A stretch of 63,372 nt of DNA, filler included, from Globobulimina sp. (lineage: Eukaryota), in assembly GCA_003354225.1 (NCBI GenBank). It is 24 parts of 24 records of this genome, joined end to end, with 100 filler letters (N's around TTAATTAATTAA, not from the genome) between each part and the next. Parts side by side here need not be neighbours in the genome. Positions count along the whole stretch, not along the records: positions 58,187 to 60,729 come from PIVH01006088.1; 23 more parts are not named here. One strand, 5' to 3'. The translations under genes and the position numbers were made by a program. Below, piece by piece: positions 7,939-61,225 of this stretch; positions within the stretch are counted from its first letter, which is position 1, and each line of letters opens with the position of its first letter. The notes beneath the pieces are model-generated. The model saw only the letters and a list, made by a program, of their open reading frames with translations, did no database searches and was not told the DNA's origin.

Positions 7939-9737
7939 CCTTATACGGCGACGTAGGAGTCTTCACCCTCATCCCCATAGGGCGCGGCGGCAAATTAGGC
8001 CGAGGACTGCCGACGGGCGAGCCACTCGGCGACGGCGACGGCAGCGGCCGGGCCCGCACCGGCAACGGCGGCTTGATCTGACTCGGCCCTTTTCGCGGCG
8101 GCTTGGCCGGCGGCTTCCCATACGGTTTCGGCGGCGGTTTGCCGGGCGGCGCCGCCACACTGCCCAACGACGGCGTGCTCGCCGTATACTCCACACTGTT
8201 CTGACTATGTTCGTGGCTGTGGCTGTCGCTCTCGTACGTATTCAGACGCGGCAGCCCCACGCCGCCATTGTGCGTCTGCGCGCGATGCGTCCTCGAAAAC
8301 AACTTGGACGCCGTATTGGTGTTGGCCGACGAGAACAGCTTCGCATTCTGAGCGTGCATTTGCATCCCAAAGGGCGCGTCGTGTGGGCCAATGATGCTGG
8401 TCATGCTCTGCGACACGGACACGGATTGCGAGAAATTCCTGTCGTGTGCCAAGGAGGAGATGCTGTCCGCGCGCGAATAGTTTGACTTAATATGGCGCGA
8501 AGTGGACGGCTTGAGGCCCTCCGTAAACGGGTTGTAGACCGGGATCAATATACTTGGATCGATGCGTTGCTCCGTGATCTTGCCGGTCAGGTTCTGAATG
8601 TCGTCGGGCATGCACGGCAACTCATACTGCTGCGGCTGGATCGCGTTGTAATTGCCGCTGTCCACTCGGATGGGATGGATGCCGTACTCTGCGATCTCGA
8701 ACGGCGACATGAGCATATTACGGGCACGCTGCAGAGTGTTGGAGCCGTTCTCCAGTTCGCATTTGCGCCATTTCAGGAGCTCGTGGTATTTGTCAAAGTA
8801 CTCGGTGTAGAAGGCGATGCGCGAATACTCCATGGCTTCCAACTGCAGGCACGCTTTGCAGATGATTTCGTTCCAGAACTCGTCCGAGACGTTGTTGAAG
8901 CGGTCCACCTGCTCCACCACGCTCTCGAACTGCTTGCGCACCTTCGACTGGATGGACTTGACCTTGTTGGCCAACTTCTTGGTCTTGCTGCTGTCCGGCG
9001 CGTTGCTGCGCTGTTTGCGCAGAGTGTGCTTGAGGTCGCACAGGTCGTTCCAGTACGAGATGGTGGCCACTTTGGTCTCGCGCAACTTGGTCGCGTGTTT
9101 GATTAACTTGTCGTATTTGTCGGACACGTATTCCTGAATGGCCTCCAGTTTGCTGATGCAGGTCTTGCGGTATTCGTAGAGCGGTTCGTAGATTTCGCTG
9201 TTGAGCCGGTTCCAGTACATGACCAATAATTTGCCCATGTTGCGCTCGAAGGAGAAGACGTCGCTGAACGCGTCGAGGTCGGTTTTCTTGTGCAACTCGG
9301 AGACGTCGCTCGAGCTCGTTTTCTCCTCGCTGTGGTTATGCGATTTTGCGAGGGGTTGTATGTTATATGTGGAGAGTTGGTGGGTTTGTACGTATATACC
9401 TGAAATGAGGCGAGGTGACTGAGGTTTCGTCGGCTAATTTGACGAAAGAAGCGGTGGTTAGGGTTGGTTCTTCGTCTTTGTATTGTTCGAGAATGCGGAT
9501 GCAAGAGTTGGAGGAGAGTTGTTGGGCATCGATGATTTGTTTTAGAAATTTGGTGAATAGTTTTAAATGACTTACTCCGTTGGCGACTATATCGACTAAT
9601 TCGTTGTATCGATGACGGACTGAGGGATATAAAGCAGTGATTGAGGCGTCAAAGAATGCCGACACAAAATCTACGTCTTTTGAACTTTTGCAGATTTTAA
9701 TTACATTTCTGAGTTTGGGATTGGGCGGTAGTTGCAT
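7939..9737 (-). CDS. F-BAR/FCH-like coiled-coil protein with proline-rich C-terminal region, 3'-truncated; intron 9330-9399
   Basis: FCH-like N-terminus (RYNELVDIVANGVSHLKLFTKFLKQ), helical body ending LQLEAMEYSRIAF, then a PPGKPPPKP tail. A 70-nt GT-AG intron joins two ORFs. Confidence 0.65.
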
Positions 9738-10814: not shown

Positions 10815-10961
10815 TCAGTAGAGCGATTTTGCGATGGAGAAACTGACGGGCTCGAGCGCGGTGACGTCGTCGCTGACTATGTAGGTGTAGCTCCCATAGA
10901 AGTCGTCGCTACAGAGATTGAAGTCGATATAGAGCTGGATCTCGATGAAGATAATCCGGCA
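10815..10961 (-). CDS. C-terminal fragment of a bacterial protein ending ...VTALEPVSFSIAKSLY*
   Basis: Manual translation (not in the ORF track): CRIIFIEIQLYIDFNLCSDDFYGSYTYIVSDDVTALEPVSFSIAKSLY-TGA. Third positions are C/G-rich, and the CDS converges on the terminator. Confidence 0.65.
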   Translation of the reverse strand, partial: CRIIFIEIQLYIDFNLCSDDFYGSYTYIVSDDVTALEPVSFSIAKSLY

Positions 10962-11082
10962 TAATTTTGCCTTTTTTTACAACGAAGTTTGTAAAAAATG
11001 CAAGAAGCTGAAAAGAAATATAAAGTACCAATATAAAAATAATAAGATGATGTGGTGTTTTTTTAATTTATTCGATGAGTGC

Positions 11083-12615
11083 ATGTCGATTCCATTCATG
11101 TCATTCAATTACAATCCAAATAATGGTCGAACGCACTCAGTGCAGATTGGAAGCGGAGCAGTCGACATTTTATTGAGTACCGACGAACAAACGATAAAAA
11201 ATCACCATCCACACACAAACAGTTCAGAGAATAACAAGAAAAAAAGCAGTAAATGCAGGAAAAAACGGAAAATAAAAGCGAAAAAAAGGAAAAAGTCAAA
11301 GTCTAAACGAACAAAACATAATCATAACAAAGATAGGCCACAAAATAAAGAAATAGAGGCAATAATATGCACAGACCATTGTGAGGAGGACAGCGAAGGG
11401 GATAACAATGTGGACGTTGATGAGTGTGATGATGAGAAGGATTTATCCGATACGGATGGTGATATCCACGCAAATGAGCTATCCATCACCATGGTGGCCT
11501 GTCCATTTTGCGCCTGTATGAATGCACAATATTTGTCATATTGCGATCAATGTAAAAAATCATTGACTCCAAAGGACAGCAACAGTGCTAAAATAGAGCC
11601 AATCGAGAAACTAGAATCGCATAAAAAAGCAAAAAAGAATAAAAAGCCTAAACACAAGAAGCAGAAACATAAAAAAAAGAAATTGGATTATTGGACATGT
11701 GCTCAATGCACATATCACAATCAAGGCAAGTTTGGCTGCTGTCAAATGTGCGCATCATCCAAAAACGAAGCGAAATTCTCGACAAAATGCACCAAAAAAT
11801 CCAAGAAAAAGAAAAACAAAAAGAACGCGAAAAAAAGAGTGAGTGTAACATGTGCAGCAAACCCGAAATCTGTACATGTGGCGGCAAACTCTGATGATAT
11901 TCAAAGCGTTTCCATTCAAAGCAAACCCAAGAACGCTTTGAAAAGCTTGAATCCCAACGCAAAAGAATTCATTTTGAATACAAATACAAATAATTCAAAT
12001 TGCAATATACAGCAACAGCACAATACAAATAATAATCGCTATAACAACAATAATAATAATCACTACAACAATTATCATAATAATAATAACTATGGGACAT
12101 ATCCAAACCATTCGCCATCGCGTCGCTTGACTGTGATACCGCGATTGCAAATAGCTGTGAATCCTGAACCAGATTATTCGCATTCACCCCGACATCATAC
12201 ATATCGCCAACAAGAATATAATAAGGCACCCAATCATAACCACAATAATAACCGTCATATTCCGCCTCGGTTTCACGTGCAATCTCCACCGTTGTTTACA
12301 CAGAGCGAAGGCGAACGAGGTGAAAGATGCAGCGATCCCGATATGACCGGTACAAATAATTCATATTCGAAGATAAATATTTCATTGATCGCACCCATAC
12401 TGCCACCACCGCCCACTCCCTCTATTTCTATCAGTGTTTCTGCGAATGCATTGTCGCAAATACCTGCTACGGATCTACAGAAGCAACTGTCTGATATGGA
12501 GGCCAATGTACAGGAACAATTACAAGTTTTGGATACTTTGTTCCCTGCGATTAAGCCCGATCTCACGCAGGAAATACAAAGTATGCAGCAAAATATTGCT
12601 ATGAATAATATATAA
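11083..12615 (+). CDS. Lys-rich protein with two RanBP2-type zinc fingers and a PAM2 motif
   Basis: CPFCACMN...CDQC and WTCAQCTYHN...CCQMC fingers, PAM2-like SLNPNAKEFIL, Asn/His-rich low complexity. Start codon uncertain. Confidence 0.75.
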   Translation: MSIPFMSFNYNPNNGRTHSVQIGSGAVDILLSTDEQTIKNHHPHTNSSENNKKKSSKCRKKRKIKAKKRKKSKSKRTKHNHNKDRPQNKEIEAIICTDHCEEDSEGDNNVDVDECDDEKDLSDTDGDIHANELSITMVACPFCACMNAQYLSYCDQCKKSLTPKDSNSAKIEPIEKLESHKKAKKNKKPKHKKQKHKKKKLDYWTCAQCTYHNQGKFGCCQMCASSKNEAKFSTKCTKKSKKKKNKKNAKKRVSVTCAANPKSVHVAANSDDIQSVSIQSKPKNALKSLNPNAKEFILNTNTNNSNCNIQQQHNTNNNRYNNNNNNHYNNYHNNNNYGTYPNHSPSRRLTVIPRLQIAVNPEPDYSHSPRHHTYRQQEYNKAPNHNHNNNRHIPPRFHVQSPPLFTQSEGERGERCSDPDMTGTNNSYSKINISLIAPILPPPPTPSISISVSANALSQIPATDLQKQLSDMEANVQEQLQVLDTLFPAIKPDLTQEIQSMQQNIAMNNI

Positions 12616-14811: not shown

Positions 14812-15693
14812 ATGTCCAGAATGATGGCAAGAGCCATACTACGCCACCAATCTCAACACACATTGCACAGAACGCAGTGTATATTGTTTTCGAGCAAAAA
14901 AAGGAAACTACCAAAGACGTGGAAGCCAACCACGACGATGTTTGTGGCAGACGCCAAGAATCCGGGCCAATACGTCTTGTCCAAGTCACATAATCTCAAA
15001 TACGAATATGATTCGTCGGAAGGCCAAGAAGGCGGAAAGACAGCGTCAGATTCGCCGTCATTGATAGATGAAATAGAGACTGCGTTGGAGGACGACGTAG
15101 AACAAGAAAAGTCCGACGATGTCAGATTTGTGGAAAACTACAGATTTGTGCTGGTGTCGTTGATCGGAATGGTGATTGTCGGATTGGGTGGCTTTTGTTT
15201 GGGGTTTACCAGAATTACACTAAACGACACCGAGAACACTGCAAACACTGAGAAACGGAGCTACTTTTTGTCCGCATTAAAAGGCGATGAATCTGTGGTG
15301 AAAAAGAGACACAAAACATATGCGAATATCATATTGAATTTGCAACAGAATGGAAGTGACTGTGTTATGCTAGACAGCAATCAGAGATATCAAAATAAGA
15401 AAGATCGCGACACCAAATACTTGCGACTGTTGGAGGCGAATGAAATGAATGTGGATAAGAAGGCATTTGAAGAGAAATTGCGCGATAAAGTGCTGGGTAT
15501 TAACTGGTCAGTGATTGATTTGTCCGAGTTCGAAATGGATGATATCTGCGATGCACACTGGGATTTGAGCAAATATGTCGATGATATCCGAGAGGATGAC
15601 ATTCATCTCAAGTTTCTGCCGCCTCTCGACAGCTTAAGATATGGCGAGGCGAAGACACAGAAATTAATGTGGCTGTATTCCAATAAAAGTTAG
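14812..15693 (+). CDS. Hypothetical single-pass membrane protein, probably mitochondrial
   Basis: Arg/Ser-rich, acid-free N-terminus (MSRMMARAILRHQSQ...FSSKKRK) and one TM segment (FVLVSLIGMVIVGLGGFCLGF). Confidence 0.6.
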   Translation: MSRMMARAILRHQSQHTLHRTQCILFSSKKRKLPKTWKPTTTMFVADAKNPGQYVLSKSHNLKYEYDSSEGQEGGKTASDSPSLIDEIETALEDDVEQEKSDDVRFVENYRFVLVSLIGMVIVGLGGFCLGFTRITLNDTENTANTEKRSYFLSALKGDESVVKKRHKTYANIILNLQQNGSDCVMLDSNQRYQNKKDRDTKYLRLLEANEMNVDKKAFEEKLRDKVLGINWSVIDLSEFEMDDICDAHWDLSKYVDDIREDDIHLKFLPPLDSLRYGEAKTQKLMWLYSNKS

Positions 15694-19362: not shown

Positions 19363-19509
19363 ATAACATATTAAAATTCTTTTTATCTCCTCTTTTTTTA
19401 TGTTTTTTTTTTGTTTGTTCATACTTGTTTTTTTATATTTAATTTTTTAAATTTTTGTTTGTTCATATTTTGTATTAAATTGCATTGTTATTTTTAGGTT
19501 GAATTGCAA

Positions 19510-19739
19510 AGTAAGTATACCGGTCAAAACAAAACACATTATAAAACATAATAAAACACATCGTAAAACAACATAAAACAAATTGTAAAACCCCCAAAAT
19601 AATTATAAAAAATAAAACAATTTCTGAAACATAGTAAAACTTTTGACAAAACACAGCAAAACACAATATAAAACATAACAAAACAAATTATAAAACAATT
19701 AATAAAACACTGTGTTTTGTTTTCACCGGTATACTTACT
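19510..19739. mobile_element. MITE-like element, 230 bp, with 29-bp terminal inverted repeats
   Basis: AGTAAGTATACCGGTCAAAACAAAACACA (19510-19538) matches the reverse complement of 19711-19739 with one mismatch. Interior is AAAAC-rich; no clear TSD. Confidence 0.7.
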
Positions 19740-22658: not shown

Positions 22659-22725
22659 GGTGCGGTGTTAATTGGTTTAGTAAGTGGTTTTCCTTTGGTG
22701 TTTTATATAACTAACAAGCAGATCT

Positions 22726-23710
22726 ATGTTGAAGATACGCAATTCACTAACAAGCAGATCACAGAAATTGTTTCCAAACAAACAGGCCAATTCATACTCA
22801 GTGAAATGGAACAAAAAAAAGCAACCCACATTAACAATACCACCAAAAGTAATGATATTTGTACTGATATTGTTTATTGTAATTTTTATATTTATTAAAA
22901 TGAACAATAATAAACAAACAATTCCAATAAATCCACAACAATTAAACATTGCCATTGTGATTCTATTAACAAAAGATCCAGGAATCTCTGGTGGTTTCTT
23001 AGATGCAATCACATCTTTATCAATATCGATAAACGAAGCAAATTCATCACACAAACTGACCAAAATTGCATTAATTCATTCGGATGTAACACAATGTATT
23101 CCCGTATTGAAATATTTTAATTATAGCATATTGGCACGTGATTTACCAATAACTTTACAAGATATCGACAACAAAAACTATGCAAAAGAACTAAAAGATA
23201 GTGGTTGCTGTGGCATTTTAGAATTATTAAAATTGGAAGTTTGGACATTAAAGGAATATGATTTCATTTTAGCAATGGATGCGGATATGTTATTGCACCA
23301 AAATTTTGACAATTTATTTGCTGAAATGTCGTTAAACAATCTACGAAATGCAAATAAGTTACTTGGTGATGCCTATAATGGGAAATATTTAGGTTGGACT
23401 CATGGAGCCACAGCAGCTCAGAAACAGGAACTAATGAATGGCGGATTCTTAATTGTTAGACCAAATATGGAGCATTATAATGCAATGTATGCGTTGATTT
23501 TGGAGGGAGACTTCCGAGATGGCACAGCATGGAAAGGCAGCGGCATTGGATGGACTTATGGCGGCCGCACTATTCAAGGCATTGTGCCATATTATTATTT
23601 CGGAGTGCTAGGTAAAGGGAATCAGGACATTGAGTTTGATCGATGTGTTTATAATAATATGGTGGAAATGGAGAAATGTAGAAAATATAAATATCAGCAA
23701 ATTGTGAATA
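22726..23710 (+). CDS. Glycosyltransferase family 8, type II membrane protein, 3'-truncated
   Basis: N-terminal TM anchor, LKLEVWTLKEYDFILAMDADM (DxD motif), MNGGFLIVRP, TIQG. Confidence 0.85.
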
Positions 23711-24525: not shown

Positions 24526-24640
24526 TGTCGAGTGGTGTTCGTTTTTAATGGGTGGGAGGATAAAAATGACACGTTATATAATCTAAGTTTAAGTACAAGG
24601 ATAAAAATGTTTAAAGAGAAATAATTTTTTGTTTTGGAGC

Positions 24641-26355
24641 ATGTCAATGTTTGTAGACATTTTACGTAATTATTATATACTCGCATTAGTCAGTTCCGAT
24701 AACATATGGTATGAGTCAATGCAGGATGCCAATGGTTTATCGAATTGGGTTCAATCAGTATCACCTCCTCCAACAATCTTTGATTTCACAACAGGTGTAC
24801 AAACCGAGGGATGCCCAACCACACATTTTGGAGTAATAAGGAATGACTGTTGGCGAGTATGTGCTCCATATTCCTCCGTGTCAAGATCTGCAGCAACCAT
24901 CGGATACAAGGATATATCATTGACATTTGACATCGACCCCTGGTCTATGCTTAATCCAAACCAGCACTGTGATATAGAATGGAGCACTGATGCTATTAAT
25001 TGGAACTTACTCGATAGCTCAACGGGTGCTGCTCACCTCACGCAATCCACAGTTTATTTAGGCAATACATCCTGGCATATCAATACTGTTCATATCAGAG
25101 TTTATGTCAATTCCGCACCGCCATCCAATTCAGCCTCATGTTGTTATATATCACACTTTGCATTAAACGGCACATTAATGACTCCAGCAACAACACCGTA
25201 TACATCAACAACGATGTATGTATCAGCAACAAGCGCAACAACAGGTACCTCAACCTAATGTTTTTCACAAAATATAATACACAAAATATAATACACAAAA
25301 TATAATACACAAAATCTAATATACAAAATATAATATACAAAAGGAACCAATTTCTTCATTGACAAAGATTGGGTATTAAAGAAAGCATATCCTTGGCAGG
25401 TAAACCAATGCATTCAAACCGCTCCAGCTTTAACCAGTCTAGAATTTACATATTACCAATGCTCTCCTAACGGACAGCACGTAACAAAATATAAATGGTC
25501 AGATGGAAGCAAAATATATGTTAACTTTGATTGTGCAAATCTAGGCACAGCCGACGAGATAACATCATATAACAAAACTGAGTCTGACACATCGTGTGAT
25601 TTATATTACTTTGAATGTAATGGCAACGACGATTATACCACAGCCAATTTTTATTTATCACTCGATACGGCGTGTTCCAATCCGCAACCACTATTTACAA
25701 TCTCTGTCGCATCGAATGTATGTTATTGCGAGTCAGCTGCCGCGTCATTAATGTTACAATGCGATGCTACAGATGCCACTGTGTATAATTATAGTGGTAG
25801 CTCATGCGATGCCTCCTTAGCCCTCCCATCCCAACAATCATTGGGCAGAGCAGGTACGCCCACGTTCTTTATCACATATAATGTTATGTTTTATATTTGT
25901 GCTGAGATGGCTGAATGCATTATAGATTCCGTAATTGCTACAAACTCGCCCACTCCGCCATGGCCAACACACTTTTCATTAAACGACACATCAATGACTC
26001 CAACTACAACACCGTACACATCAGCAACAACACCATACACATCAGCAACAACACCACCACCTTCACTATTGAACCTGTTGCAGCCAACCCCCAGCAACCA
26101 ACAAAGTGTCGATTCAATGAGCAGTACTTTGTCGCAGGTATTGGAGCCAGAAGAGGATGATGTTGGTAATGGCAATTATGGCATATGGGATATAAAAAAT
26201 ATAATGGATGATGGATTAATTTATGTTATTATTGGAGCTGCTGTATTGTTGTTGATTTGCTGTGGAATAATGTTAATATTTTGTCGCAGAAGGAAGAAAA
26301 TTAAACAAGTGCACAAATTTGTTCATCAATCATTGACTATGAAGCATGTACAGAA
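24641..26355 (+). CDS. Cys-rich type I surface protein, 3'-truncated; intron 25245-25343
   Basis: Removing a 99-nt GT-AG intron that contains the stop gives a continuous frame through two Cys-rich domains, a PT stalk, TM LIYVIIGAAVLLLICCGIMLIFC and RRRKK. Confidence 0.75.
25266..25340. repeat. 14-bp minisatellite (CACAAAATATAATA) x5 inside an intron
   Basis: Directly visible tandem array. Confidence 0.9.
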
Positions 26356-26462
26356 NNNNNNNNNNNNNNNNNNNNNNNNNNNNNNNNNNNNNNNNNNNNT
26401 TAATTAATTAANNNNNNNNNNNNNNNNNNNNNNNNNNNNNNNNNNNNNNNNNNNNTAAAGAT

Positions 26463-28244
26463 ATGATGGTCAGTAATAAGATATTATTTTTATGGGAAAT
26501 GATCTTCCGATGTATGCCCGCCTTAATCCTACAATTTTATATCTTGTTACTTGAAGCAGAGGAAAAGGAATACGACATTTCCATATTATTAACCATAGCA
26601 GCCAGCGGTTTATCTGTTTCATTCACTATCTTACGGATATTATATGGCGATCATCACAGCATGACAAGAGAGGAAGATATGAACTTATTAAAATTGAAAA
26701 CCATCGACAGAGACAACGACGATGACCCAGCAATGGAAAATATGTTCAAACATCCAAACGTATTATCTTTATTAATGAGCGGATACACTCCAAATAACAT
26801 CGATAATGCTTTCGTGCAAATCAAACAAATCGAGGAATATAAGTATGTGACATTGGATCATCCACAGTTTCAAGAGATTATCATGCAACAATTAGACAAA
26901 CAGGAGCAGCCTGAATATGGTCAGCAGGGCATTCCAATCGAACCAGCCAGCCCAGCCATGCAAGCTCCAAAACCTATGCCAATGATAAATAACAACCAAC
27001 AGCAAATCTCTATGACATTTACTATAAATGGGCAACAGCAGCAAATGCAATCAGCGCAGCAATATGCTCCAACTCAACCAATGCAGTGGCAAATGCAACC
27101 ACAGCAACCGCAGCAAATTCCGTTACAGATACCGCGGCAAATGCCGCTACAAACAGCACAGCCAAATGTACAGCGGCAACGGCCGAAAATGGAGAAATTG
27201 CCGCAAGAAAGCATTGAAGAGCACGCCGAGGAGCAAGATTTTGATACAATGAGTGATGTTGATTCGTTGGCATTGACTATGAGCAGCGAAGTTAGCTATA
27301 AACAAAAGAAGAATCGCATCAATTGGACGCATCCATATATCATTCATTTAAAAGATTTGGGTTGGAGCAAAAGGCAAATCCAAAGCGCTTATTTTGTATT
27401 TAAAAACAGCAACGATATCGATAGTGAACGGTCGAACATAAAAATGGATAATGTCAAGTTCTTAGCATTTATGATTAATATTTTAGTGTCAGATTTGAAA
27501 CAAACGCCAGAGAATGAACAAAGGGATTTTAGTACAACTTCAGAATGCATTGATAAAATGTATCAGAATTTTGTGTGTTGTCTATGTTGTCGAATATTGA
27601 CCAAAATTAATGAGGATAATGCTTGCTGCTGTTGCTGCTGCACAATGTTTAATGTTGTCAATAACAATAAGAATGCGAATAATTTTACTGTGAGAGACAA
27701 TATTTTCTATTTGGGAATGTATTTGTTTTTAATCACAGATTTTTATTGTCGAATATTTCCATTATTGGCATATACTGTTTTGTTGCATAACTATTTAGAA
27801 TCATTGACTTCGTTTGCTTTGCTAAATGTATTTATCGGCGTATGTCCTATGGCCATTGCAATTGGATTATTTGAGTTGATTACATATTATATCATGTTGA
27901 AAAAAGCCAATACTTCGTTAAAAGCAGCAATCAAATATTTCTGGACTGGATATTTTACGATTTCTTATTATTTGTTGAGTACAATGCATTTAACCTATTT
28001 GGCCTCAAATGTGAATTTTACAAAATTATATCGTTCACATTTGGTTCGAATGTTGATACAAGTTTTAATGTTATGTATTGTGATTGGAATGCAATATATT
28101 TTATTTGATCATCCATTTGGTTTTTTTGAACGAAGTGTGTTCCTATTTGTATTTAATTGGGTATTAAATATATGGATTTTCATTTGGATGAAGTGTTATA
28201 TGCTTACTTTTCAGAGTAAGATTGTCGATAAAACAGATGATTAA
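26463..28244 (+). CDS. XK-related (Xkr-like) multi-pass membrane protein with large Gln/Pro-rich insertion, probably 5'-truncated
   Basis: EMIFRCMPALILQFYILL and IAASGLSVSF resemble XK family helices; FLITDFYCRIFP and further TM helices follow a ~340-aa loop. Confidence 0.55.
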   Translation: MMVSNKILFLWEMIFRCMPALILQFYILLLEAEEKEYDISILLTIAASGLSVSFTILRILYGDHHSMTREEDMNLLKLKTIDRDNDDDPAMENMFKHPNVLSLLMSGYTPNNIDNAFVQIKQIEEYKYVTLDHPQFQEIIMQQLDKQEQPEYGQQGIPIEPASPAMQAPKPMPMINNNQQQISMTFTINGQQQQMQSAQQYAPTQPMQWQMQPQQPQQIPLQIPRQMPLQTAQPNVQRQRPKMEKLPQESIEEHAEEQDFDTMSDVDSLALTMSSEVSYKQKKNRINWTHPYIIHLKDLGWSKRQIQSAYFVFKNSNDIDSERSNIKMDNVKFLAFMINILVSDLKQTPENEQRDFSTTSECIDKMYQNFVCCLCCRILTKINEDNACCCCCCTMFNVVNNNKNANNFTVRDNIFYLGMYLFLITDFYCRIFPLLAYTVLLHNYLESLTSFALLNVFIGVCPMAIAIGLFELITYYIMLKKANTSLKAAIKYFWTGYFTISYYLLSTMHLTYLASNVNFTKLYRSHLVRMLIQVLMLCIVIGMQYILFDHPFGFFERSVFLFVFNWVLNIWIFIWMKCYMLTFQSKIVDKTDD

Positions 28245-39776: not shown

Positions 39777-39854
39777 CTACACTAAGAACCTACACTGAGA
39801 AACTACAATAAGACCCTATACTATGACCCTACACTAAGACCCTGCACTAAGCCC
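39777..39854. repeat. Degenerate 13-bp minisatellite (CTACACTAAGACC) x6
   Basis: Visible tandem array, enclosed by an imperfect ~40-bp inverted repeat (about 39683-39722/39858-39900). Confidence 0.8.
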
Positions 39855-40197: not shown

Positions 40198-42023
40198 TTA
40201 TTTTGCGGAATGTTTCTTAAATTGTTTTGTCGTATTTTCATACCAGACATCAAATTTTTCATCTTTTAACTTTAACGGAAACAACGCAGATAATTTATTC
40301 TTATCCAATAAACTTGAATTCTTTGGTGCTTTCTTTTGAAAATAACTTGGTAATAATTTAACTAAATCAATTGGTTCGAATCGAGTGCCCCATCCATTAA
40401 CATACAAATAACATCGAATGAGATCCATTGATAAAACATGAAAACTTAATGTGATTAAATTCTTACAATCAGAGCCTAAATGTTTATCATTTAAATCATC
40501 ATTCAAGCCCGGTATCAAACACTTCTTTGTTTTAAATAACAATGATTCCTCAATAAAATCGCTATGCAACTTATCAAAACACCCAAAATTCTCAAATTTA
40601 TAATCGATATCTGTATCAATATCATCCTGGTCCTCAGCAGTTTGCTCACATTTTGGTGAATAAATATATATCTTATCATTATTTGTTTTCTTGCCATCAC
40701 AGTCTTGCTTCTTCTCCTCCTTATCATTTATTACATGTTTAATATCATTTTTATCCCTTCGGTCAACCACCATCACATAGCGACCATTCCTTCCTTTTCT
40801 GACCTCTTTAAAGTTTTCATTGATTTTCCGTTTGAGCTGCGCAGAGGCATTATTTTTTAACATCTTCTCTTCAATATCAAAAATCTGCGCTTTAATATTA
40901 TATTTCCTCAATCTGGGTTCAATAAATCCAATTTCGTCCTTGAAGGAAGCCATTCCGTGTCCCACATAACTTTCTTCCTCTTCCTCCTCCGGCTCCTCAC
41001 CAGAGTCAGTGTCGACGTAATCCGATTCATCGCTATCTACCACTTTGACCGTATCAAATTGTGCATTGACATCAGTCGATATTTTCTTTGGTATAATGAC
41101 TAAATCAAATTGAAAAGGTATGATATCATGCTGATCATTGTCATCTTTATTTTGTTCTCTTTCTAATAATATACCATCCAGCATTTGAGCGGCCGCATAG
41201 ATATATTTTACGATATCTTCCACTTTGTCATTGAATTTTGTTTTTGGATCAAATTGTAATTTTGGAACAAAACGGGAATGATAGGAAGATAATATGGCAT
41301 GAACTGCGTTGCCTTTGTTATTCGATGCTTCCATACTTTTATAAAATGGTAAATTGTTTTTAAAATCTGAGATAGAAATATCTTTTTTGTGTTTACTGTG
41401 ATAGAAAGTATTAATTCGAAAACGATTGAAAGTATCGGCAATATATAATATTAATGGTATGTCGTTGTCGTAGCCCAATGTTGCTGTATCAATGAATGCT
41501 TTTTCTGGGAAATTATTTACTAATCCTGGACATTGAGAGAGATATAAATTGCGCGTTACTTTGGTTTTAGTGTCCCAATCAGTATAATCACGTTTTAATG
41601 TGGTGATGTCATTGTATTTGTTTTCCGACGGCGAATATGTGTTGGTTTTGTCTGATTTGAATGCTTTTGCTTTTGATGTTTTCGATGATTTACATTTAGA
41701 TTTAGATAATTTTGGTGATTGCTGCTGAGGTTTATAGTATTTAATGCATATACATTGAATAGATTTGAATTGTTTTATTGGTATTTGATCTTTAAGGAAG
41801 GATTCATCTTCGTTGTGAACATCGAACCATATCGATTCATCATCAAACTGTGTTATTTTTAATGTTGTTTTTAAAATTTAAGCGAAAACAACATGACAAT
41901 AACAGCAAAGTACATAACTCCTTCTTCTTCTAAGATGTCAAATAATTGACCTGCGATATTTTCATCAAACTCATCTGTAATTTCAGTTTTGATTATGTCC
42001 AGGAGTGGTGATTCAGCTGCCAT
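40198..42023 (-). CDS. Hypothetical protein; intron 41848-41918
   Basis: Exon 1 MAAESPLLDII...ILEEEG splices in frame to FDDESIWFDV, and the frame stays open into the 426-aa ORF. Confidence 0.7.
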
Positions 42024-49225: not shown

Positions 49226-50254
49226 AAACTGTAGTAAGCTGCATGGAGAAAAGCAACAAACCAAAAAATTAAATCAGATATGTTTTGATTATGTTTTGTT
49301 TTGTTTTGTTTTGTTTTGTGTTTTGTGAATGTTTAAAATATCATATTATCAGAACGAGTGCAGGCGGCGCCGCCTCCAGTTTCAGTTTGATGGCCTCAGA
49401 ATATGTTCTAACGCAGCCGGCAATGTCGGAGATTAATATTTGTGGCAATGTCGGAGATTAATTCGAATTCGAAAACGGATCGCATGCAAATGATGATTTT
49501 GCATTGGTATTTTGGGCCACCTCGCATACAAATTATACAAATATAGAATATATGGACGTTAACTAATTTTAATTACGACGAGACTTTGTACGGCGTGGAC
49601 GACGACAAAATTGTTCAAATTGGCGCAGCAAATCATATCTATTCATTGCGGGACAGACTCCGAATTCGGAAGAGATGAAATTAAATATTTGCGGCTTGGA
49701 TGTGGGAATAAATGAGCCGGATAAATATATCTCGGACATTGACTGCATTATAGCTGCGATTATAGCGTTATATAACGAGTATTTTCGATCGATATTATTC
49801 GCTGAATGACCGGTTTTTGAATGATTTATATTGGATTTCCATTTAAATTGTATCAGTTTATGAGTATTTGTCCGGTGTCGACATGGCAGATTTATTTATT
49901 TTACAGCGGCTGAATTTAAGGGTTGAGGTTTCCTAGGAGGTCACAGCTAGACTAGTCAGTTTAGTCACCTATAACAATTTAGTCATTATCAATAACTATT
50001 TAGTGAACATACTGCACGGATATTTATCAATAACTATTTAGTCAATACCAATATAACTATTCGGATTATGATATCACTATGGATATCGATTAGATCTCCG
50101 ATTATGAACATTAATAAAACACAACAAAATTCATTGACTATTTAGTTATTGTAANNNNNNNNNNNNNNNNNNNNNNNNNNNNNNNNNNNNNNNNNNNNTT
50201 AATTAATTAANNNNNNNNNNNNNNNNNNNNNNNNNNNNNNNNNNNNNNNNNNNN

Positions 50255-52333
50255 TCGCCATCCTATTTAATATTTGCCTGTCCCGGTGTACCCGATCTAG
50301 TCTCTGGTGGACAAACAATCGTATCTTCCGTTGAGAAAATATTTAATAAATTAATGCAAAGTGAACTAGGCAGAAATTTATTGAACGATGTTGCAAAATA
50401 TGGTGTTATTTATATTCGGAATGATGTTGATGAAAACAATAAAAAATCTGCGCCAATATGGGAAAATGTATCATATCCAACGTGGCAAAAAAGATTTAGT
50501 GGGCGAAATAAAAGTGAAATTATTGATTTGTTGACTGCAAACAATCAAAATGGAACATGGATATCTGACAATAATGGTTATCACACACTACATTCACGAT
50601 GGTTTATGCCTGGTTTCCGGTTACATCCAATGACAGAGAAAATGGTTTGGTTTAATCAATTATATGCTATGAATGGTCGCTATTTTAATTTGCATTTAGT
50701 GCCTGGAATGGATGCAATATACAATTTGTCTGAGAGGCCATTACATACATTGATAGGCAATGGGAGAGAATTAAGTGATGCGGAATATGTATTATTAGAT
50801 AATATTAATAGTGAATCAGCCATATTAATACCATGGGACAATAAAGGTGATATCTTAGCAATTGATAATTTTGCATATCAACATGGGAGAACACCATATG
50901 ATTCGTACAGAAGTTGTGTCATTAACTGGGGGCAGCCGGTTAAAGGTGGCAAATATATTTATAATCCAAAAGATTTCATGCAACCAATTGAGACCCACGA
51001 TATTGTCGCGGTTTATGAGTTATTGGATAACTTTAAATGGTATGACACATTGTATGAATATGTGATATACAGAGAGAATGAGAATATATTATCTGCAAAA
51101 TATGATTATACGTCTTCAGAAATTTCGTTTGATGATAATATTCCACAGATATATAAAGAAATATTTTCATATCGCAAAGATATAAATGTTTTAATTCATG
51201 TTTCTAATCCGGATATTTCATCCATTGTAATGTCGCAATATTCTTTTTTAGCGATTGATCAAAATTATTATATGTTACAACCAGTTCAAAAAATAAATAA
51301 ATTTAATGTCAGCAACTTAGGAATGGAAAGTAAATTATTATTAATAAATAATGAGGGAATGCTTGTTTTTGGTGCGTCAGTTTATGAAACATTTTCGCGA
51401 TTATTTTATGCAATTCGTGCCGCAAAAGCACAAGTATTTGCATTGCAGTATAATATCAATGATATAATATTTCCATCAGAAGAGATTCAACAAATTACAG
51501 CCAATCAATCATTAAATTTCAATGCAATAAATGGCTACGGATATTTAGAATTTATGGCATGGAAAAGAAGATATAATTTATTGCATAATGGAAGAGCCAA
51601 TATATGCCAACAAAAAGAAGAAGAAGAGATAGTATTTGAGTCTGATGAATATAATCTACGCAGAGACATTGTGCGCGCATATTTAACCTTAGATAGATTA
51701 GGATGGACAGACACGATTTGGCAGCATATTACAGCGGTGCTGCCAAATACAAATGACATGTTGCTAAATGCGTATGGTTTAGAATTTGGTGAAGTGTCCA
51801 TAAACAATTTGATGAGAGTAAGAATGAATGGTAGTGTTATTTATGGCGGCAATTCCGTTCGTTGTGGCGAAATAAACCCGTCTGGTTTCGTATTGCATGC
51901 AGTTATTCATAGAGCCCGCGCAGATGCACAGGTTGTCATACATTGCCATCATCCAATAATATCTGCAGTGTCTGTGTATAAACATGGTTTGTTATCGTCT
52001 TCCATTGAGGAGAAATATAAACAATTGATTGGTGAGATTGCTTATCATCCATTTGATTCATTAAGTTTTGCAATAAATAAAAGAATATTAGCAAATGAAT
52101 TGTCAAATGGAAGTAATGTTATTATTTTGAGAAATCATGGCATTGTTACTATTGGTAACAATGTGAAGGATGCATTCAATCGATTATATTACACCATGCA
52201 AGCCGCAAAAATACAAATCAAAACTGTCAATCAACACAATATAAATCCATCTGAGTGTCAAGCTAATAATAATAATACCAACGATAATAATTATTATGAT
52301 GCATGGAGTAGATTTAATGTCGCAAACGCATAA
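50255..52333 (+). CDS. Fusion of a TauD/TfdA-type dioxygenase and two class II aldolase/adducin domains, 5'-truncated
   Basis: PSYLIFAC..P...GGQT, VWFNQL and WDNKGDILAIDN...HGRTPY. Degenerate aldolase (LIHVS, NEG), then intact aldolase (WQHIT, GLEFGEV, LHAVIHRARAD, IHCHH, LRNHG). Confidence 0.85.
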   Translation, partial: SPSYLIFACPGVPDLVSGGQTIVSSVEKIFNKLMQSELGRNLLNDVAKYGVIYIRNDVDENNKKSAPIWENVSYPTWQKRFSGRNKSEIIDLLTANNQNGTWISDNNGYHTLHSRWFMPGFRLHPMTEKMVWFNQLYAMNGRYFNLHLVPGMDAIYNLSERPLHTLIGNGRELSDAEYVLLDNINSESAILIPWDNKGDILAIDNFAYQHGRTPYDSYRSCVINWGQPVKGGKYIYNPKDFMQPIETHDIVAVYELLDNFKWYDTLYEYVIYRENENILSAKYDYTSSEISFDDNIPQIYKEIFSYRKDINVLIHVSNPDISSIVMSQYSFLAIDQNYYMLQPVQKINKFNVSNLGMESKLLLINNEGMLVFGASVYETFSRLFYAIRAAKAQVFALQYNINDIIFPSEEIQQITANQSLNFNAINGYGYLEFMAWKRRYNLLHNGRANICQQKEEEEIVFESDEYNLRRDIVRAYLTLDRLGWTDTIWQHITAVLPNTNDMLLNAYGLEFGEVSINNLMRVRMNGSVIYGGNSVRCGEINPSGFVLHAVIHRARADAQVVIHCHHPIISAVSVYKHGLLSSSIEEKYKQLIGEIAYHPFDSLSFAINKRILANELSNGSNVIILRNHGIVTIGNNVKDAFNRLYYTMQAAKIQIKTVNQHNINPSECQANNNNTNDNNYYDAWSRFNVANA

Positions 52334-57199: not shown

Positions 57200-57322
57200 A
57201 TTGATATTGTTTCAATCTCAGATCAAATCTGAACACAAACCACGGTTTCAACTTTCAATCTGTAGTATGTAAAACAAAGATGTAAACAAAACCTCAACTG
57301 TGAATGTCTTAGTCGTCGTTGG

Positions 57323-58086: not shown

Positions 58087-58288
58087 NNNNNNNNNNNNNN
58101 NNNNNNNNNNNNNNNNNNNNNNNNNNNNNNTTAATTAATTAANNNNNNNNNNNNNNNNNNNNNNNNNNNNNNNNNNNNNNNNNNNNGACCACCAGAAGCC
58201 TTGACAATTTTAAAAACAAAATTCCATACATTATCAAAACACATCTGATCCCACATAAACCCAAACAATATATATCACAACAAAACAG

Positions 58289-59330
58289 TGCTCATAAAGC
58301 ATTAAAAGAGCAGTTTGATGATGACATATTTCCACGACATCTTGTCGACATATTAAAACTTGACATAACCGACGCTAACTCCATCCAAACCGCATCGGAA
58401 TACATTAAACAAACATACAATTCAAAAATTAATGTCTTATTTAACAACGCGGGAATCGCATTTCGTTCAAACCAATTTAATCCAAACCTAACTGATCAAA
58501 CATTGAACACAAATTTCTATGGAACTATGAATATCACCAAAGCACTCTGTCCCTTTGTCACTGATCGAATATTTTTTGTCTCATCGCGTAGTGGAGCATT
58601 ACAACAATATTCCAAACAGCGAATCGGTGATTTTTTAGATCCGAAATTGAGCGAAACAAACCTAATTAATATGGTACAGGAGTTCAAAACTGATGCTTTG
58701 CCGCTGGTCTCTGGGGATTTTAAGGACGAGCTTGCCATTGAAAAAAGTGGATGGACGTTGAATGCATATAATTTGAGCAAAGCAGCGATTTCAATGTATT
58801 CCCGCATTTTGGCTGTGGATTTATTTGAAAAACAGAAACGACGAATATTTGTTTGTGCTTATTTTCCAGGTAACTGTCGTTGGTATTTTATAAGCAGACA
58901 ACCGCATAAATTATAAGTTGTGTTGCAGTCTGCTTATAATTTTTGGAAACGTTGTTGTAACGAATATGGATATGTGTTATATTCAGGTGATTGTAGGACG
59001 GATATGACCCAATTTAATGGTGAAAGGAGTCCCGTTGAAGGTGCGTTTGGTCTGACAAGTATGGCTTCGATGTTGCTCGATCATGAGGAGGATAATGAAA
59101 AGAGAGAGAGGTTGGGGTTGGAACAGGATGATTTGTTGCCATTTGATGTACCAAATGGAGTGTTGTGGACTGCTTTTTATGCGAAAGTGGGTGATTTGAG
59201 TAGTGTGCAGATAGAAGCAGTGGATTGGATAAATCCGGCAAAGAGTGTGAGTTGGGACAATATTTTAAGTGATTTTGTGATAAGGAAAGGAAAAGGCGTT
59301 ATTTCTATTGATGATCAAGCCTCGCCATAA
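58289..59330 (+). CDS. Carbonyl-reductase-type SDR, 5'-truncated; intron 58870-58986
   Basis: LDITD, LFNNAGI, TNFYG, VSS, YNLSK (YxxxK) and spliced PGDCRTDM. Confidence 0.9.
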
Positions 59331-59473
59331 TTGCGTATATGTACAATGATATTGATATGAATTAGTCAGTTATGCCCCTACAATATCTTACTTTCGGTTC
59401 AGATTATAACGTTCGTTCGATCATTATTCAGATGCAGAAAGTTTTGCACTTTGAAACTTTTGCTGCTTGAAAC

Positions 59474-60577
59474 ATGGCAGAGAGACGAATTCAAAAAGAG
59501 TTGGATGAAATTATCCAAAATCCAATACAACATTGTGATGTGTTACCAATTGATGGGAATTTATTTAAATGGGAAGGTGAAATTTTAACTGAATTTTATC
59601 GAAGTACTGAGTCTAAAAATAATAAATATATCCATAAATTCCTCGTAACTTTCCCTAAAGATTACCCATTCAAACCAATACAAATCAAATTTATCTCAAA
59701 ACTTAATCATAAAAACATTGATGGAAAGGGCATTATGCAGTATTTAAAAGATTTGACTGATTGGTGTCCAACAAATACAATAAGCAAAGTATTAAAAGAT
59801 GTAAATAATATATTATCGGATCCTGGATCTATTTATGCTGTTTTATATAAACATTTTGCGACAAATACACAGCAAATAAATAAAAATAAAACATTTAGGC
59901 AAAATCCATTGGAATATTTTGAACAAAAGAATCAAAATAAACGCAATACTGATATGAAACTTATTTTTTATGATGAAATATCAGGTAAAAGTTCATATTT
60001 TCATCGTTATGATTGCAGAAATGATAAAATATCCAAATATGAATTTATTATATTTATTCCCGATTTGACTGCTCAAACAATGATAAAAAATGGAATTAGT
60101 AAATATTGCACAATTCCAAGTATTGGTGATATAATTTGTGGAATGGTGGGTCCACATTTTAATGGATTTGCGGAACTCATTTACTTATCATACAGCAATG
60201 CATATGGTGACAGTGAGACATTTTGTGCAAAGGTTAAATTTTATTTTAAAAGCAAATGTGTTGAGTTTGGTGTTCAAAAATATGTTGAATGGGGTGAATA
60301 TGTGGAGGAGTATAAATTTCATGAAATGCCATTGGAAGCCCAATTGAATCAGTTCCAACAGGAATTGTCGGAGAATGTGTTGGGTGAATTGATGGATGTT
60401 TTGCCAGATTTGTTATGGATATATGAGAAATGGCCACAAACAGTATGGAATGAAGATAAATTAAAGTATACTTCATATGTTGAATCGAATAATTTATCGA
60501 TTTATAATCCTGTACATAATGCTCATTATAAGGTTGCAAACAGTGTCAGTCCATTATATTTAACTTTTTTGGCTTAG
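59474..60577 (+). CDS. UBC-fold protein lacking the catalytic Cys (E2 variant) with C-terminal extension
   Basis: MAERRIQKEL, FPKDYPFKP, and HKNIDGKGIMQYL where the consensus is HPNI...G.ICL. Confidence 0.8.
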   Translation: MAERRIQKELDEIIQNPIQHCDVLPIDGNLFKWEGEILTEFYRSTESKNNKYIHKFLVTFPKDYPFKPIQIKFISKLNHKNIDGKGIMQYLKDLTDWCPTNTISKVLKDVNNILSDPGSIYAVLYKHFATNTQQINKNKTFRQNPLEYFEQKNQNKRNTDMKLIFYDEISGKSSYFHRYDCRNDKISKYEFIIFIPDLTAQTMIKNGISKYCTIPSIGDIICGMVGPHFNGFAELIYLSYSNAYGDSETFCAKVKFYFKSKCVEFGVQKYVEWGEYVEEYKFHEMPLEAQLNQFQQELSENVLGELMDVLPDLLWIYEKWPQTVWNEDKLKYTSYVESNNLSIYNPVHNAHYKVANSVSPLYLTFLA

Positions 60578-60604
60578 TTTCGTTTCATTTCATTTGAACG
60601 ATTA

Positions 60605-60727
60605 GCAAAGTTTTTGGTTAGCTAGAGTGGTTTTCAACCTAGTATTCGAAGTTGACCTAGGTCCTCCAATACTAGGTAACTACGAATACTAGGTTGAAAA
60701 CCACTCTAGCTACCCCAAAAACCTTGC
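60605..60727. repeat. Near-perfect ~120-bp hairpin (MITE-like)
   Basis: Perfect 30-bp arms at 60619-60648/60683-60712, with imperfect inner and outer extensions. Confidence 0.85.
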
Positions 60728-60829
60728 CANNNNNNNNNNNNNNNNNNNNNNNNNNNNNNNNNNNNNNNNNNNNTTAATTAATTAANNNNNNNNNNNNNNN
60801 NNNNNNNNNNNNNNNNNNNNNNNNNNNNN

Positions 60830-61225
60830 GGCATAAAAGCTACGAAAATCGTGCAGATTAATTACAGACATCCGGTGATTATTGATTTGAAGAATAGAAT
60901 CGAGGATGGTGAAGGCGAAGAGAATCTGGAATTGGAGGATTTGGCCAATTTATTGTTGGATGTGGCATTAATTAAATCTGGCTTTGAGATTGATAATGAA
61001 TATCAACAGTCGTTGGTGGACAGAGTGGATCGTATTGTACGTAAACGATTGAATGTTGATTCGAATGCGGCATTGGAAGAGGAGCCGGAATTTGCAAATG
61101 ATGTGGATGAAGAGGAGGAGGATGAAGATGAGGATGAGGATGAAGAAGAAGAAGAAGAGGAGGAAGAATTGCAGGATGAATCTGATGAGGAGGAAAGCGA
61201 TGATGACAATAAAGAAGAGTTATAA
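60830..61225 (+). CDS. HSP90B1: ER Hsp90 (GRP94/endoplasmin) C-terminus
   Basis: QINYRHPVIIDL...LLDVALIKSGF, an acidic tail, and terminal KEEL (ER-retention type). Confidence 0.88.
   Translation, partial: GIKATKIVQINYRHPVIIDLKNRIEDGEGEENLELEDLANLLLDVALIKSGFEIDNEYQQSLVDRVDRIVRKRLNVDSNAALEEEPEFANDVDEEEEDEDEDEDEEEEEEEEELQDESDEEESDDDNKEEL

Follow-up and report, generated by a model that had tools for sequence, protein, structure and literature searches.

A 5′-to-3′ base-composition gradient along genes of the foraminiferan Globobulimina sp.

The SDR gene and its surroundings

The window analyzed here is a 63,372-nt stretch of Globobulimina sp. DNA (GCA_003354225.1), taken from a fragmentary nuclear assembly and made up of 24 unlinked slices of 2543–2546 nt each, chained by 23 artificial linkers. 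The original prediction treated it as one contiguous, gene-dense stretch, a view that we set aside, as many of the apparent junctions are artificial linkers. Because the slices are unlinked, inferences on gene order or on gaps are unsafe wherever they reach across a linker. The gaps that lie within slices are short, measuring for example 52 nt (1265–1316), 67 nt (22659–22725), and 143 nt (59331–59473).

The main locus of interest is an SDR gene (58187–59330) in slice 23, which is followed in tandem by a gene with a ubiquitin-conjugating domain (Table 1). Both SDR introns are backed by spliced RNA-like contigs. The partial 5′ intron ends in AG at 58287–58288, and contigs from runs X4 and X6 align from 58285 only, with extra unaligned letters upstream, while the second intron is absent (spliced) from one contig of X6 and one of X8. 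Runs X4, X6, and X8 behave as spliced RNA when aligned, though none of the runs is recorded as RNA, and they consist of contigs only, without depth, strand, or transcript ends. Two segments of the gene, 58187–58271 and 58867–58951, are uncovered by contigs, and this absence of cover is uninformative.

The SDR gene changes markedly in composition along its length. Our recount reproduces exactly the three counts with which the original prediction described this change: 14 C and 2 G at 58201–58260 in the 5′ intron, 14 C and 4 G at 58381–58440 in the exon, and 5 C and 21 G at 59161–59220 in the last exon. Measured over 400 nt, GC skew rises from −0.353 (58200–58599) to +0.416 (59000–59399), and when the first 400 nt of the gene are subtracted from the last 400 nt, the keto (G + T) skew difference is 0.485 and the GC skew difference 0.878. 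None of 5000 mononucleotide shuffles matches the SDR skew difference (z = 6.8), and among segments of the same length within slices (n = 1366), 0.07% are as extreme, which is essentially the segment itself. Within the coding sequence, GC skew per third is −0.58/+0.33/+0.75 at codon position 3, −0.47/−0.14/+0.13 at position 2, and +0.14/+0.29/+0.59 at position 1. The polarity of the introns (two, in this one gene) matches their place in it, with a GC skew of −0.64 and an AT skew of +0.42 in the partial 5′ intron versus +0.32 and −0.14 in the intron at 58870–58986. The skews per codon position and intron thus bear out the earlier proposal that introns and synonymous sites share the same polarity and that amino-acid content does not explain it. 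The neighboring ubiquitin-conjugating-domain gene displays the same gradient, its keto skew at position 3 being +0.02/+0.14/+0.32 per third. No other gene in our sample is as extreme as the SDR gene, and the mean gradient is modest.

Table 1. Features of the SDR slice and of other genes in the window that bear on the composition gradient.
Feature	Position	Strand	Evidence or measurement
Artificial linker before slice 23 (N44, TTAATTAATTAA, N44)	58087..58186	.	One of 23 linkers
SDR intron, 3′ part, truncated by slice start	58187..58288	+	A/C-rich: 49 A, 27 C, 6 G, 20 T
SDR exon with adh_short domain; C-rich, G-poor 5′ part of gradient	58289..58869	+	Pfam PF00106, E = 2.4e-15; translation; skews
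SDR intron, 117 nt, GT..AG, in 3′ half of gene	58870..58986	+	G/T-rich: 34 A, 13 C, 25 G, 45 T
Final SDR exon, stop TAA at 59328–59330; G/T-rich, C-poor 3′ part	58987..59330	+	Sequence, skews
Gap of 143 nt, SDR stop to next ATG	59331..59473	.	T-rich (55 T/143); skew resets; crossed by X1 DNA contigs
Ubiquitin-conjugating-domain gene, tandem with SDR	59474..60577	+	Pfam UQ_con
Gene called GT8 in the original prediction	22726..23709	+	GC skew per third −0.21/+0.07/+0.35 (ORF 22711–23709), p = 4.3e-6
Complete gene with gradient	26463..28244	+	Position-3 keto skew per third −0.17/+0.14/+0.28
Gene with gradient on its own sense strand	40198..41877	−	GC skew per third −0.27/+0.18/+0.30 (ORF 40201–41877), p = 9.7e-8
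GC-rich gene (GC3 0.80), strongest synonymous-site gradient in the window	7940..9433	−	r = 0.331
Counter-example ORF, trend significantly reversed	24605..25255	+	p = 0.0033; synonymous r = −0.123

Extent and robustness of the gradient

To the extent covered by our sample (approximately 61 kb and 35 ORFs), the polarity from a C/A-rich start to a G/T-rich end is confirmed at synonymous sites across the long ORFs of the window. By ORF quintile, the keto fraction at synonymous third positions is 0.414, 0.474, 0.491, 0.517, and 0.533 (r = 0.081, p = 4e-19 over 12225 sites), where ORFs are taken from stop to stop and many are truncated by slice ends, so that relative position often differs from position in the gene. 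The slope of synonymous G + T is positive in 30/35 long ORFs (sign test p = 2.2e-5) and opposite in 5/35, in a set that is not fully independent, as pairs of SDR exons, of chitinase ORFs, and of RPEL-region ORFs are each counted as two. The mean r per ORF is 0.070 (Wilcoxon p = 0.001). The trend is kept in the 27 ORFs that the original prediction did not name (r = 0.061, p = 2.7e-9) and likewise over the central 60% of ORFs (p = 4e-4). Of the 11 complete single-ORF genes, all but one (10/11) have a final third whose keto skew at position 3 exceeds that of the first third. In 26/33 ORFs, G is on average located 3′ of C, significantly so in 10; a further two, 10933–12612 and 24605–25255, are significantly reversed.

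Synonymous third positions show the gradient most strongly, first positions show it weakly, and second positions lack it, with r for the keto trend being 0.077, 0.025, and 0.014 (not significant), respectively. It is present at fourfold sites and in each of the two twofold classes. Along the fourfold sites, G/(G+C) by quintile is 0.433, 0.427, 0.440, 0.532, and 0.532 (p = 1.4e-4), while T/(A+T) rises from 0.335 to 0.425 (p = 0.005), such that AT skew is positive but falling. The purine fraction at these sites is flat along genes (p = 0.9); with this fraction constant, the change along the sense strand is in effect from A to G and from C to T.

The flip is present in all four of the other genes that the original prediction singled out, namely GT8, 14812–15693, 26463–28244, and the minus-strand gene at 40198. 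The synonymous-site r of the gene called GT8 is 0.199, and a Pfam scan gave no match for it. At 14812–15693, keto skew per third is −0.15/+0.03/+0.05 (p = 0.04), and ORF 26457–28241 has a GC skew of −0.08/+0.08/+0.21 per third. At fourfold sites of the GC-rich gene at 7940–9433, the count of G increases from 31 in the first half to 78 in the second. As for the other gene labels assigned earlier, Pfam agrees with RPEL, DnaJ_C, and the HSP90 C-terminal domain, while F-BAR had no Pfam match among the ORFs scanned. The HSP90-family tail (61109–61180) contains GAGGAT/GAAGAT repeats, and a tRNA at 10604–10678 is the sole Rfam match in the window.

A metagene view shows how the trend relates to gene ends. 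Following ATGs, GC skew is approximately 0 for 700 nt, and the keto fraction of all bases is 0.455 over the initial 100 nt; in the last 600 nt before stops, the two values are +0.15 to +0.22 and 0.50–0.53, respectively. Several of the candidate ATGs are not true starts, as exemplified by DDX1, in which coding continues upstream of 32929. Upstream of 22 candidate ATGs, GC skew is −0.13 from −40 to −1 and approximately 0 farther out; downstream of 20 stop codons, it is +0.13 over 1–40 nt, with T at 0.45, and over 1–80 nt, T is 0.44–0.45, C is 0.11–0.14, and G is not raised (0.15–0.16). These flank values are to be read with the shortness of the gaps in mind, since the flanks belong to neighboring genes, and with some ATGs being mis-assigned. 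The reverse-complement symmetry that had been proposed for the pattern holds roughly when all bases are considered; it fails at fourfold sites, which are A + C-biased on the sense strand throughout the gene (keto 0.370 to 0.469 across quintiles).

As a control, we examined 126 ORFs of at least 250 aa from other eukaryotes, obtained from 75 metagenome loci found with a DDX1 alignment. These ORFs display no trend (mean r = 0.003, 66/126 positive). There is no foraminiferal DDX1 locus among those 75 loci, for which the best full-length identity is 47%. The DDX1 ORF of the window itself has its best matches at 73% identity to a EukProt entry and 68% to Ammonia sp. (MMETSP1384), Ammonia being a genus of Foraminifera, and past the fifth match, identity falls to 45%. 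These similarities point to a foraminiferan.

Possible origins of the gradient

We interpret these observations as a composition gradient anchored to the transcription unit in foraminiferan genes, for which the probable cause is transcription-coupled, strand-asymmetric mutation or repair. In this gradient, A + C is favored near the 5′ end of the sense strand and G + T becomes commoner toward the 3′ end, with the rise in G/T presumably continuing into the T-rich, C-poor 3′ flank. Under the probable cause, the balance of mutation and repair would shift along the unit, from the part near initiation to the part near termination, and one possible example is an increase in damage of the transition type (C to T, A to G) on the non-template strand. 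Of the two readings offered by the original prediction, the one that survives is a mutational bias tied to gene ends, which we consider the likeliest kind of cause; the other, replicons or boundaries in the gaps, is not supported. When the window is compared with related runs, no clear amino/keto asymmetry is seen among the differences listed (40 of 96), which are unpolarised.

A somewhat unlikely alternative is that the gradient reflects selection on RNA or on transcription. A/C-rich 5′ regions could leave the beginning of the mRNA free of structure so that initiation can proceed, while G/U-rich 3′ regions serve cleavage, polyadenylation, and termination, or, within the same low estimate, avoidance of C toward 3′ ends could pace RNA polymerase II, an adaptive hypothesis of McLean and Tirosh that is presented in PMC3315797. 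In foraminifera, the use of A + C in 5′ UTRs tracks expression positively, with 3′ UTRs generally showing the reverse (PMC11980380). The 80 nt past stop codons in our window, T-rich and C-poor, also resemble ordinary 3′-end signals, and the three in-slice gaps described above are very short. Nonetheless, the trend spans the middle 60% of ORFs and the SDR introns, far from initiation and 3′-end signals. Furthermore, native ORFs are not less folded locally than permutations of synonymous codons within the gene: among 34 ORFs, the mean z is −0.47, with weaker folding in 12/34 and a Wilcoxon test that points the other way (p = 0.019). Reduced local mRNA structure is thus not an effect of the gradient, and on the permuted-codon folding test, we rejected unstructured mRNA as the main cause.

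Distinctly unlikely, in our estimation, is a two-sided process emanating from promoter-bearing gaps. Here, promoters would fire both ways and leave an A/C-rich non-template strand on the transcribed DNA, and the G/T-rich 3′ end of a gene would, with the same low probability, be the footprint of antisense transcription from the promoter of its downstream neighbor. The roughly reverse-complement-symmetric pattern of all bases, with its lower keto fraction after ATGs than before stops, is consistent with this idea. Neighbor orientation gives a hint as well: synonymous keto over the last 100 codons is 0.597 in 6 genes with a same-strand follower versus 0.522 in 8 genes in convergent pairs, a contrast that comprises 14 gene ends with overlapping per-gene values (0.49–0.72 vs 0.43–0.66). 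The convergent gene at 26463–28244, moreover, has a strong gradient, whereas bidirectional firing would leave the 3′ ends of convergent pairs without G/T enrichment. If such firing were nevertheless at work, a transition-type load from deamination (C to T, A to G) would flip sign with distance from the nearest promoter, and foraminiferal genes would be a readable record of polymerase traffic.

Compared with transcription-coupled mutation or repair, gene-scale replication or DNA processing is a most improbable source of the gradient. Origins, telomere-addition sites, or amplification boundaries in the gaps would set the skew of each unit, producing gene-scale replicons or gene-sized molecules. 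Plus-strand skew indeed drops sharply at gaps and climbs within units regardless of gene orientation, and the gaps within slices are very short. In bacteria and in human skew domains, however, an upward jump in G + T skew marks an origin and a downward jump a terminus, and the jumps at the gaps here are downward (from + to −), the polarity of termini rather than origins. The A + C bias of fourfold sites on the sense strand along the whole gene further indicates a dependence on transcription direction. A sign change that tracks gene midpoints, for which the original prediction proposed a test, is not found: in the 11 complete genes, the minimum of cumulative keto skew falls anywhere from 0.08 to 1.00 of gene length. 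By ORF map and Pfam tally, more than one separate gene lies on the uninterrupted sequence of approximately 13 of the 24 slices, and Tandem Repeats Finder detects no telomere-like array at any gap. The gap between the SDR and ubiquitin-conjugating-domain genes is spanned by overlapping DNA contigs of X1 (58989–59368 and 59343–59566), a run that may be the assembly sample of the window itself, and there is no loose contig end at this gap among those listed.

On these grounds, the replicon reading is already largely refuted, and multi-gene slices, a spanned gap, downward jumps, and missing telomere arrays together leave the proposed origins and processing boundaries unsupported. We also rejected two specific candidates. 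A replication-origin skew switch is at odds with the downward jumps at the gaps and with a fourfold sense-strand bias that is constant in sign, and nanochromosomes are at odds with the multi-gene slices, the X1 contigs across the gap, and the lack of telomere-like arrays. Finally, chance or protein residue composition, such as acidic tails and N-terminal low-complexity regions, can be given almost no credence, and with respect to the entire window, this reading stands refuted. In its favor, acidic repeats make some 3′ ends rich in G, as in the HSP90-family tail, and there is the weak trend at first codon positions. Against it, the effect at third positions is about three times that at first positions and nil at second positions, it holds at fourfold and both twofold classes, 0/5000 shuffles reach the SDR value, and the control ORFs are trendless.

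Relation to known strand asymmetries

The original prediction regarded the pattern as its best candidate for an undescribed genome-level system. This does not stand, as the same intragenic pattern has been published for unicellular fungi (PMC3315797) and a UTR version for foraminifera (mBio 2025, PMC11980380). In unicellular fungi, the coding strand is C-biased at 5′ ends and G-biased at 3′ ends, including fourfold sites and flanks, and mutation dependent on the phase of transcription was proposed as the cause (PMC3315797). The gradient described here shares with the fungal one of McLean and Tirosh its 5′ C bias, its 3′ G bias, the intermediate composition in between, its presence at fourfold sites, and, perhaps, its extension into flanks. 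Both also occur gene by gene, in many but not all genes, being significant in 33% of C. albicans genes there versus 10/33 ORFs here.

The two differ in several respects. In fungi, A and T barely change and AT skew is positive and flat, whereas here, the rise in fourfold T/(A+T) amounts to an amino-to-keto shift. Non-degenerate positions are affected about equally to fourfold sites in fungi, whereas third positions dominate here, and the host is a rhizarian rather than a fungus. We consider the gradient to be a feature of the same type as the one in unicellular fungi, where the two gene ends have opposite GC skews, with an A-to-T component added. With AT skew flat in fungi but falling here, the cause may differ from the fungal one and is perhaps not identical to it.

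Within foraminifera, 5′ UTRs favor A + C and 3′ UTRs favor T + G (PMC11980380), preferences that come from the same lineage and have the same polarity as the present gradient, which is probably their genomic counterpart. In our flanks, whose UTR limit is defined at the SDR 3′ end only, the 3′ side agrees with these preferences in its high T and low C but not in G, and the 5′ side agrees weakly. That work concerns transcriptomes and treats UTRs and whole ORFs; its main sections, as far as available, present neither a gradient within coding sequence nor introns, and its supplements may hold more. It was the sole relevant find in the literature on GC skew in foraminifera or Reticulomyxa that we could access. 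Our observations add a rhizarian to the unicellular fungi as bearers of this feature of transcription units, which has been little studied and is yet to be explained. In the rhizarian, it takes a clearer amino-to-keto form that is visible also in introns. Its occurrence in a rhizarian makes a general transcription-linked cause likelier than one specific to fungi. In practical terms, the polarity can help in establishing the orientation and limits of genes where foraminiferal assemblies are fragmentary, and codon-usage and phylogenetic models for these organisms should permit composition to depend on position.

Mammalian genes display a transcription-associated asymmetry with an excess of G + T on the non-template strand. 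As in our window, this asymmetry follows the direction of transcription, occurs in introns, and has, on the non-template strand, a signature of the transition type (C to T, A to G). In mammals, however, the sense strand is G + T-rich throughout and most so near the 5′ end, whereas here, the 5′ part is A + C-rich and the excess of G + T lies 3′. The skew jumps associated with replication, such as those at bacterial origins and termini and in human N-domains, resemble the present pattern in forming a sawtooth along one strand; there, origins jump up, whereas here, the gaps jump down, the units are 1–2 kb, and the fourfold pattern depends on orientation. Lastly, the macronuclear chromosomes of spirotrich ciliates are similar in their one-gene scale and in having C/A-rich 5′ and G/T-rich 3′ ends, in their case as telomeres. 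Unlike in these ciliates, contigs here carry several genes and no telomere arrays, the host is a foraminiferan, and standard stop codons fit the long ORFs.

Skew along the SDR gene and across the ORFs of the window

In the short-chain dehydrogenase (SDR) gene, for which the original prediction described a C/A-rich 5′ end grading to a G/T-rich 3′ end, our recount reproduces its three base counts exactly, and over the length of the gene the 400-nt GC skew climbs from -0.353 to +0.416. The shift is far larger at codon position 3 (-0.58, +0.33, and +0.75 by thirds of the CDS) than at positions 1 and 2, and the introns have GC and AT skews of -0.64 and +0.42 at the 5′ side and of +0.32 and -0.14 at the 3′ side. 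The flip is reached by 0 of 5000 shuffles and is the most extreme among 1366 windows of the same length. Given the third-position and intron skews and the shuffles, residue content is unable to explain it, as had been argued from the sequence, and the comparison with same-length windows agrees. The SDR gene is an outlier that drew attention, and the mean effect across ORFs is modest.

Among 33 ORFs that do not overlap one another and reach 180 aa or more, the mean position of G lies 3′ of that of C in 26 (10 of them significant), while two (10933-12612 and 24605-25255) are significantly reversed. In a set of 35 ORFs, which are stop-to-stop frames often cut by slice ends and which count three genes as two ORFs each, the G+T (keto) fraction at synonymous third positions rises by quintile from 0.414 through 0.474, 0.491, and 0.517 to 0.533 (r = 0.081 for its correlation with position along the ORF, p = 4e-19). 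The trend is positive in 30 of the 35 ORFs (per-ORF mean r 0.070, Wilcoxon p = 0.001); at first codon positions it has about a third of this strength, and at second positions it is absent. It holds when the eight ORFs of the originally named genes are left out (27 ORFs, p = 2.7e-9) and in the middle 60% of ORFs alone (p = 4e-4). At fourfold sites, G/(G+C) goes from 0.433 to 0.532 and T/(A+T) from 0.335 to 0.425 with a flat purine fraction; on the sense strand, A gives way to G and C to T. In the flanks, the first 80 nt past 20 stop codons have a T content of 0.44-0.45 and a C content of 0.11-0.14, and the 40 nt preceding 22 candidate ATGs, some of which are not true starts, have a GC skew of -0.13. 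The gradient is strongest where sites are least constrained, and it is found in introns too. No gradient is observed in 126 control ORFs of at least 250 aa from 75 metagenome loci of other eukaryotes (mean r = 0.003, 66/126 positive).

Candidate origins of the gradient

The gradient is tied to transcription units, oriented by the sense strand, and transition-like. In all quintiles, fourfold sites keep an excess of A+C on the sense strand, and the pattern therefore follows transcription direction and lacks the reverse-complement symmetry first attributed to it. The probable source is transcription-coupled mutation or repair that treats the two strands unequally, with a balance that would shift along the transcription unit between its initiation-proximal and termination-proximal parts. 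Selection acting on nascent RNA or 3′-end signals is an unlikely alternative to this coupling, and selection for unstructured mRNA is rejected as the main cause, as native ORFs do not fold more weakly than within-gene synonymous-codon permutations (weaker in only 12 of 34 ORFs, mean z -0.47). More doubtful still is a two-sided process anchored at promoters, which is hinted at by the synonymous-site keto fraction of the last 100 codons (0.597 at six tandem 3′ ends versus 0.522 at eight convergent ones), but this contrast comes from a sample too small to count. Finally, the proposed gene-scale replicons or gene-sized molecules find no support and are argued against by the fourfold bias, by the roughly 13 of 24 uninterrupted slices that carry at least two genes (counted from the ORF map together with the Pfam matches), by two overlapping contigs of X1 (a DNA run, perhaps of the window's own sample) that span the gap between the SDR gene and the ubiquitin-conjugating-domain (UBC) gene, where none of the listed loose ends of aligned contigs lies, by the lack of telomere-like arrays in the window, by cumulative-skew minima that, across 11 complete genes, are scattered between 0.08 and 1.00 of the gene's length rather than tracking midpoints, and by skew jumps at gaps that go downward, whereas known replication origins are upward jumps.

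The pattern had been put forward as a candidate for an undescribed system, yet the same one is published for unicellular fungi. McLean and Tirosh describe it in almost all of them, with a coding strand that is C-biased at the 5′ end and G-biased at the 3′ end, at fourfold sites and reaching promoters and 3′ UTRs, and with 33% of genes affected in C. albicans; the causes they propose are transcription-phase-specific mutation or adaptive C-avoidance (PMC3315797). In foraminiferal transcriptomes, a 2025 study finds A/C preferred in 5′ UTRs and T/G in 3′ UTRs, with a link to expression, and its excerpted text reports no positional gradient within coding regions and does not mention introns (PMC11980380). 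In the literature library searched, no further relevant paper turned up on foraminifera or Reticulomyxa with GC skew, and the title of the fungal study is cited by only three other papers. Our genes are a foraminiferan case of a known, unexplained intragenic skew gradient, to which, compared with the fungal one, they add an AT component and intron evidence.

Make-up of the window and its source

The N runs are strictly patterned, each being a 12-letter all-frame stop motif between two blocks of 44 N, with a period of ~2645 bases. These 23 linkers split the window into 24 slices of 2543-2546 nt; the window is therefore a string of separate pieces rather than a single chromosome stretch, and because adjoining slices are not genomic neighbours, gene order across linkers is uninformative. 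Position 58187, where the originally noted feature starts, is the first base of slice 23.

Gene content is eukaryotic by Pfam (DDX1-type SPRY+DEAD, G-alpha, RPEL, GH18 with CBM_14, DnaJ_C, HSP90 C-terminus, UQ_con, and adh_short). The DDX1 fragment has 73% identity with a EukProt entry and 68% with Ammonia sp. (MMETSP1384), a genus of Foraminifera, falling to 45% beyond the fifth match, and this similarity places the source organism within the foraminiferans or very close to them. The sliced window fits the figures for the sole sequenced foraminiferal genome in a published table (N50 3.6 kb, ~2 introns per gene with a length of 87 nt, short intergenic distances; PMC13746701).

Features of the SDR locus and linkers
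Feature	Coordinates	Strand	Evidence
SDR exons	58289-58869, 58987-59330	+	adh_short, E = 2.4e-15; translations
SDR intron, 117 nt, GT..AG	58870-58986	+	removed in one X6 contig and one X8 contig (X4, X6, X8: runs behaving as spliced RNA)
End of upstream SDR intron	58187-58288	+	X4 and X6 contigs align only from 58285, with extra letters upstream
UQ_con gene	start 59474	+	143 nt past SDR stop
Linkers, N44 + TTAATTAATTAA + N44	2547-2646, 5193-5292, ... 60730-60829		

Gaps, repeats, and individual genes

Gaps between coding regions within slices are very short (1265-1316, 22659-22725, 24526-24640, and 57200-57322), at 52 nt for a tandem pair and, where start codons diverge, 67, 115, and 123 nt; at 14812 (+)/14863 (-), the two divergent candidate ATGs would even overlap. 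Short tandem repeats in the gene flanks (25266-25342, 19531-19710, 39777-39851, 49281-49319, and 19409-19473) seemingly share the polarity of the gradient, with A/C-rich units CACAAAATATAATA and AAAACACATTATAAAACATAAT upstream of plus-strand ORFs and sense-strand G/T-rich units TGTTT and TTTTGTTTGTTCATA downstream of genes; downstream of the minus-strand gene 40198-41877, the sense-strand G/T-rich unit is the complement of CTACACTAAGACC.

At the SDR 3′ end (59317-59334), the match of the RNA-like X6 contig ends at 59334, 4 nt past the stop, and is followed by 30 unaligned letters; should these prove to be poly(A), the 3′ UTR would measure just a few bases. Just past the UBC stop, 60600-60729 has long inverted arms (60600-60640 versus 60685-60725) and a word depth of ~10,800 in X1, with the signal beginning at about 60482, versus ~3-9 in flanking genes. 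Many contigs exit at 60554-60671, and the segment resembles a MITE-like or foldback repeat of very high copy number.

The RPEL-repeat gene (6621-7838) contains a 129/258-nt tandem array, in which the 129-nt unit occurs ~9 times with 69-83% matches and which encodes the RPEL units. A tRNA gene (10604-10678; Rfam RF00005, 53 bits) lies in GC-rich surroundings, with the ATG at 10945 following ~270 nt downstream, and the ORF at 50255-52330 joins a TauD-type dioxygenase domain and a class II aldolase/adducin domain in a single frame, an unusual fusion. In slice 4, the gene at 7940-9433 (-), with a weak AATF-Che1 match as its only Pfam match, has the strongest synonymous gradient (r = 0.331) and a GC3 of 0.80 versus 0.2-0.5 in other genes; local GC is 0.53-0.59, and the opposite slice end has 29-33% GC. 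This gene may derive from recent transfer, very different expression, or an assembly chimera.
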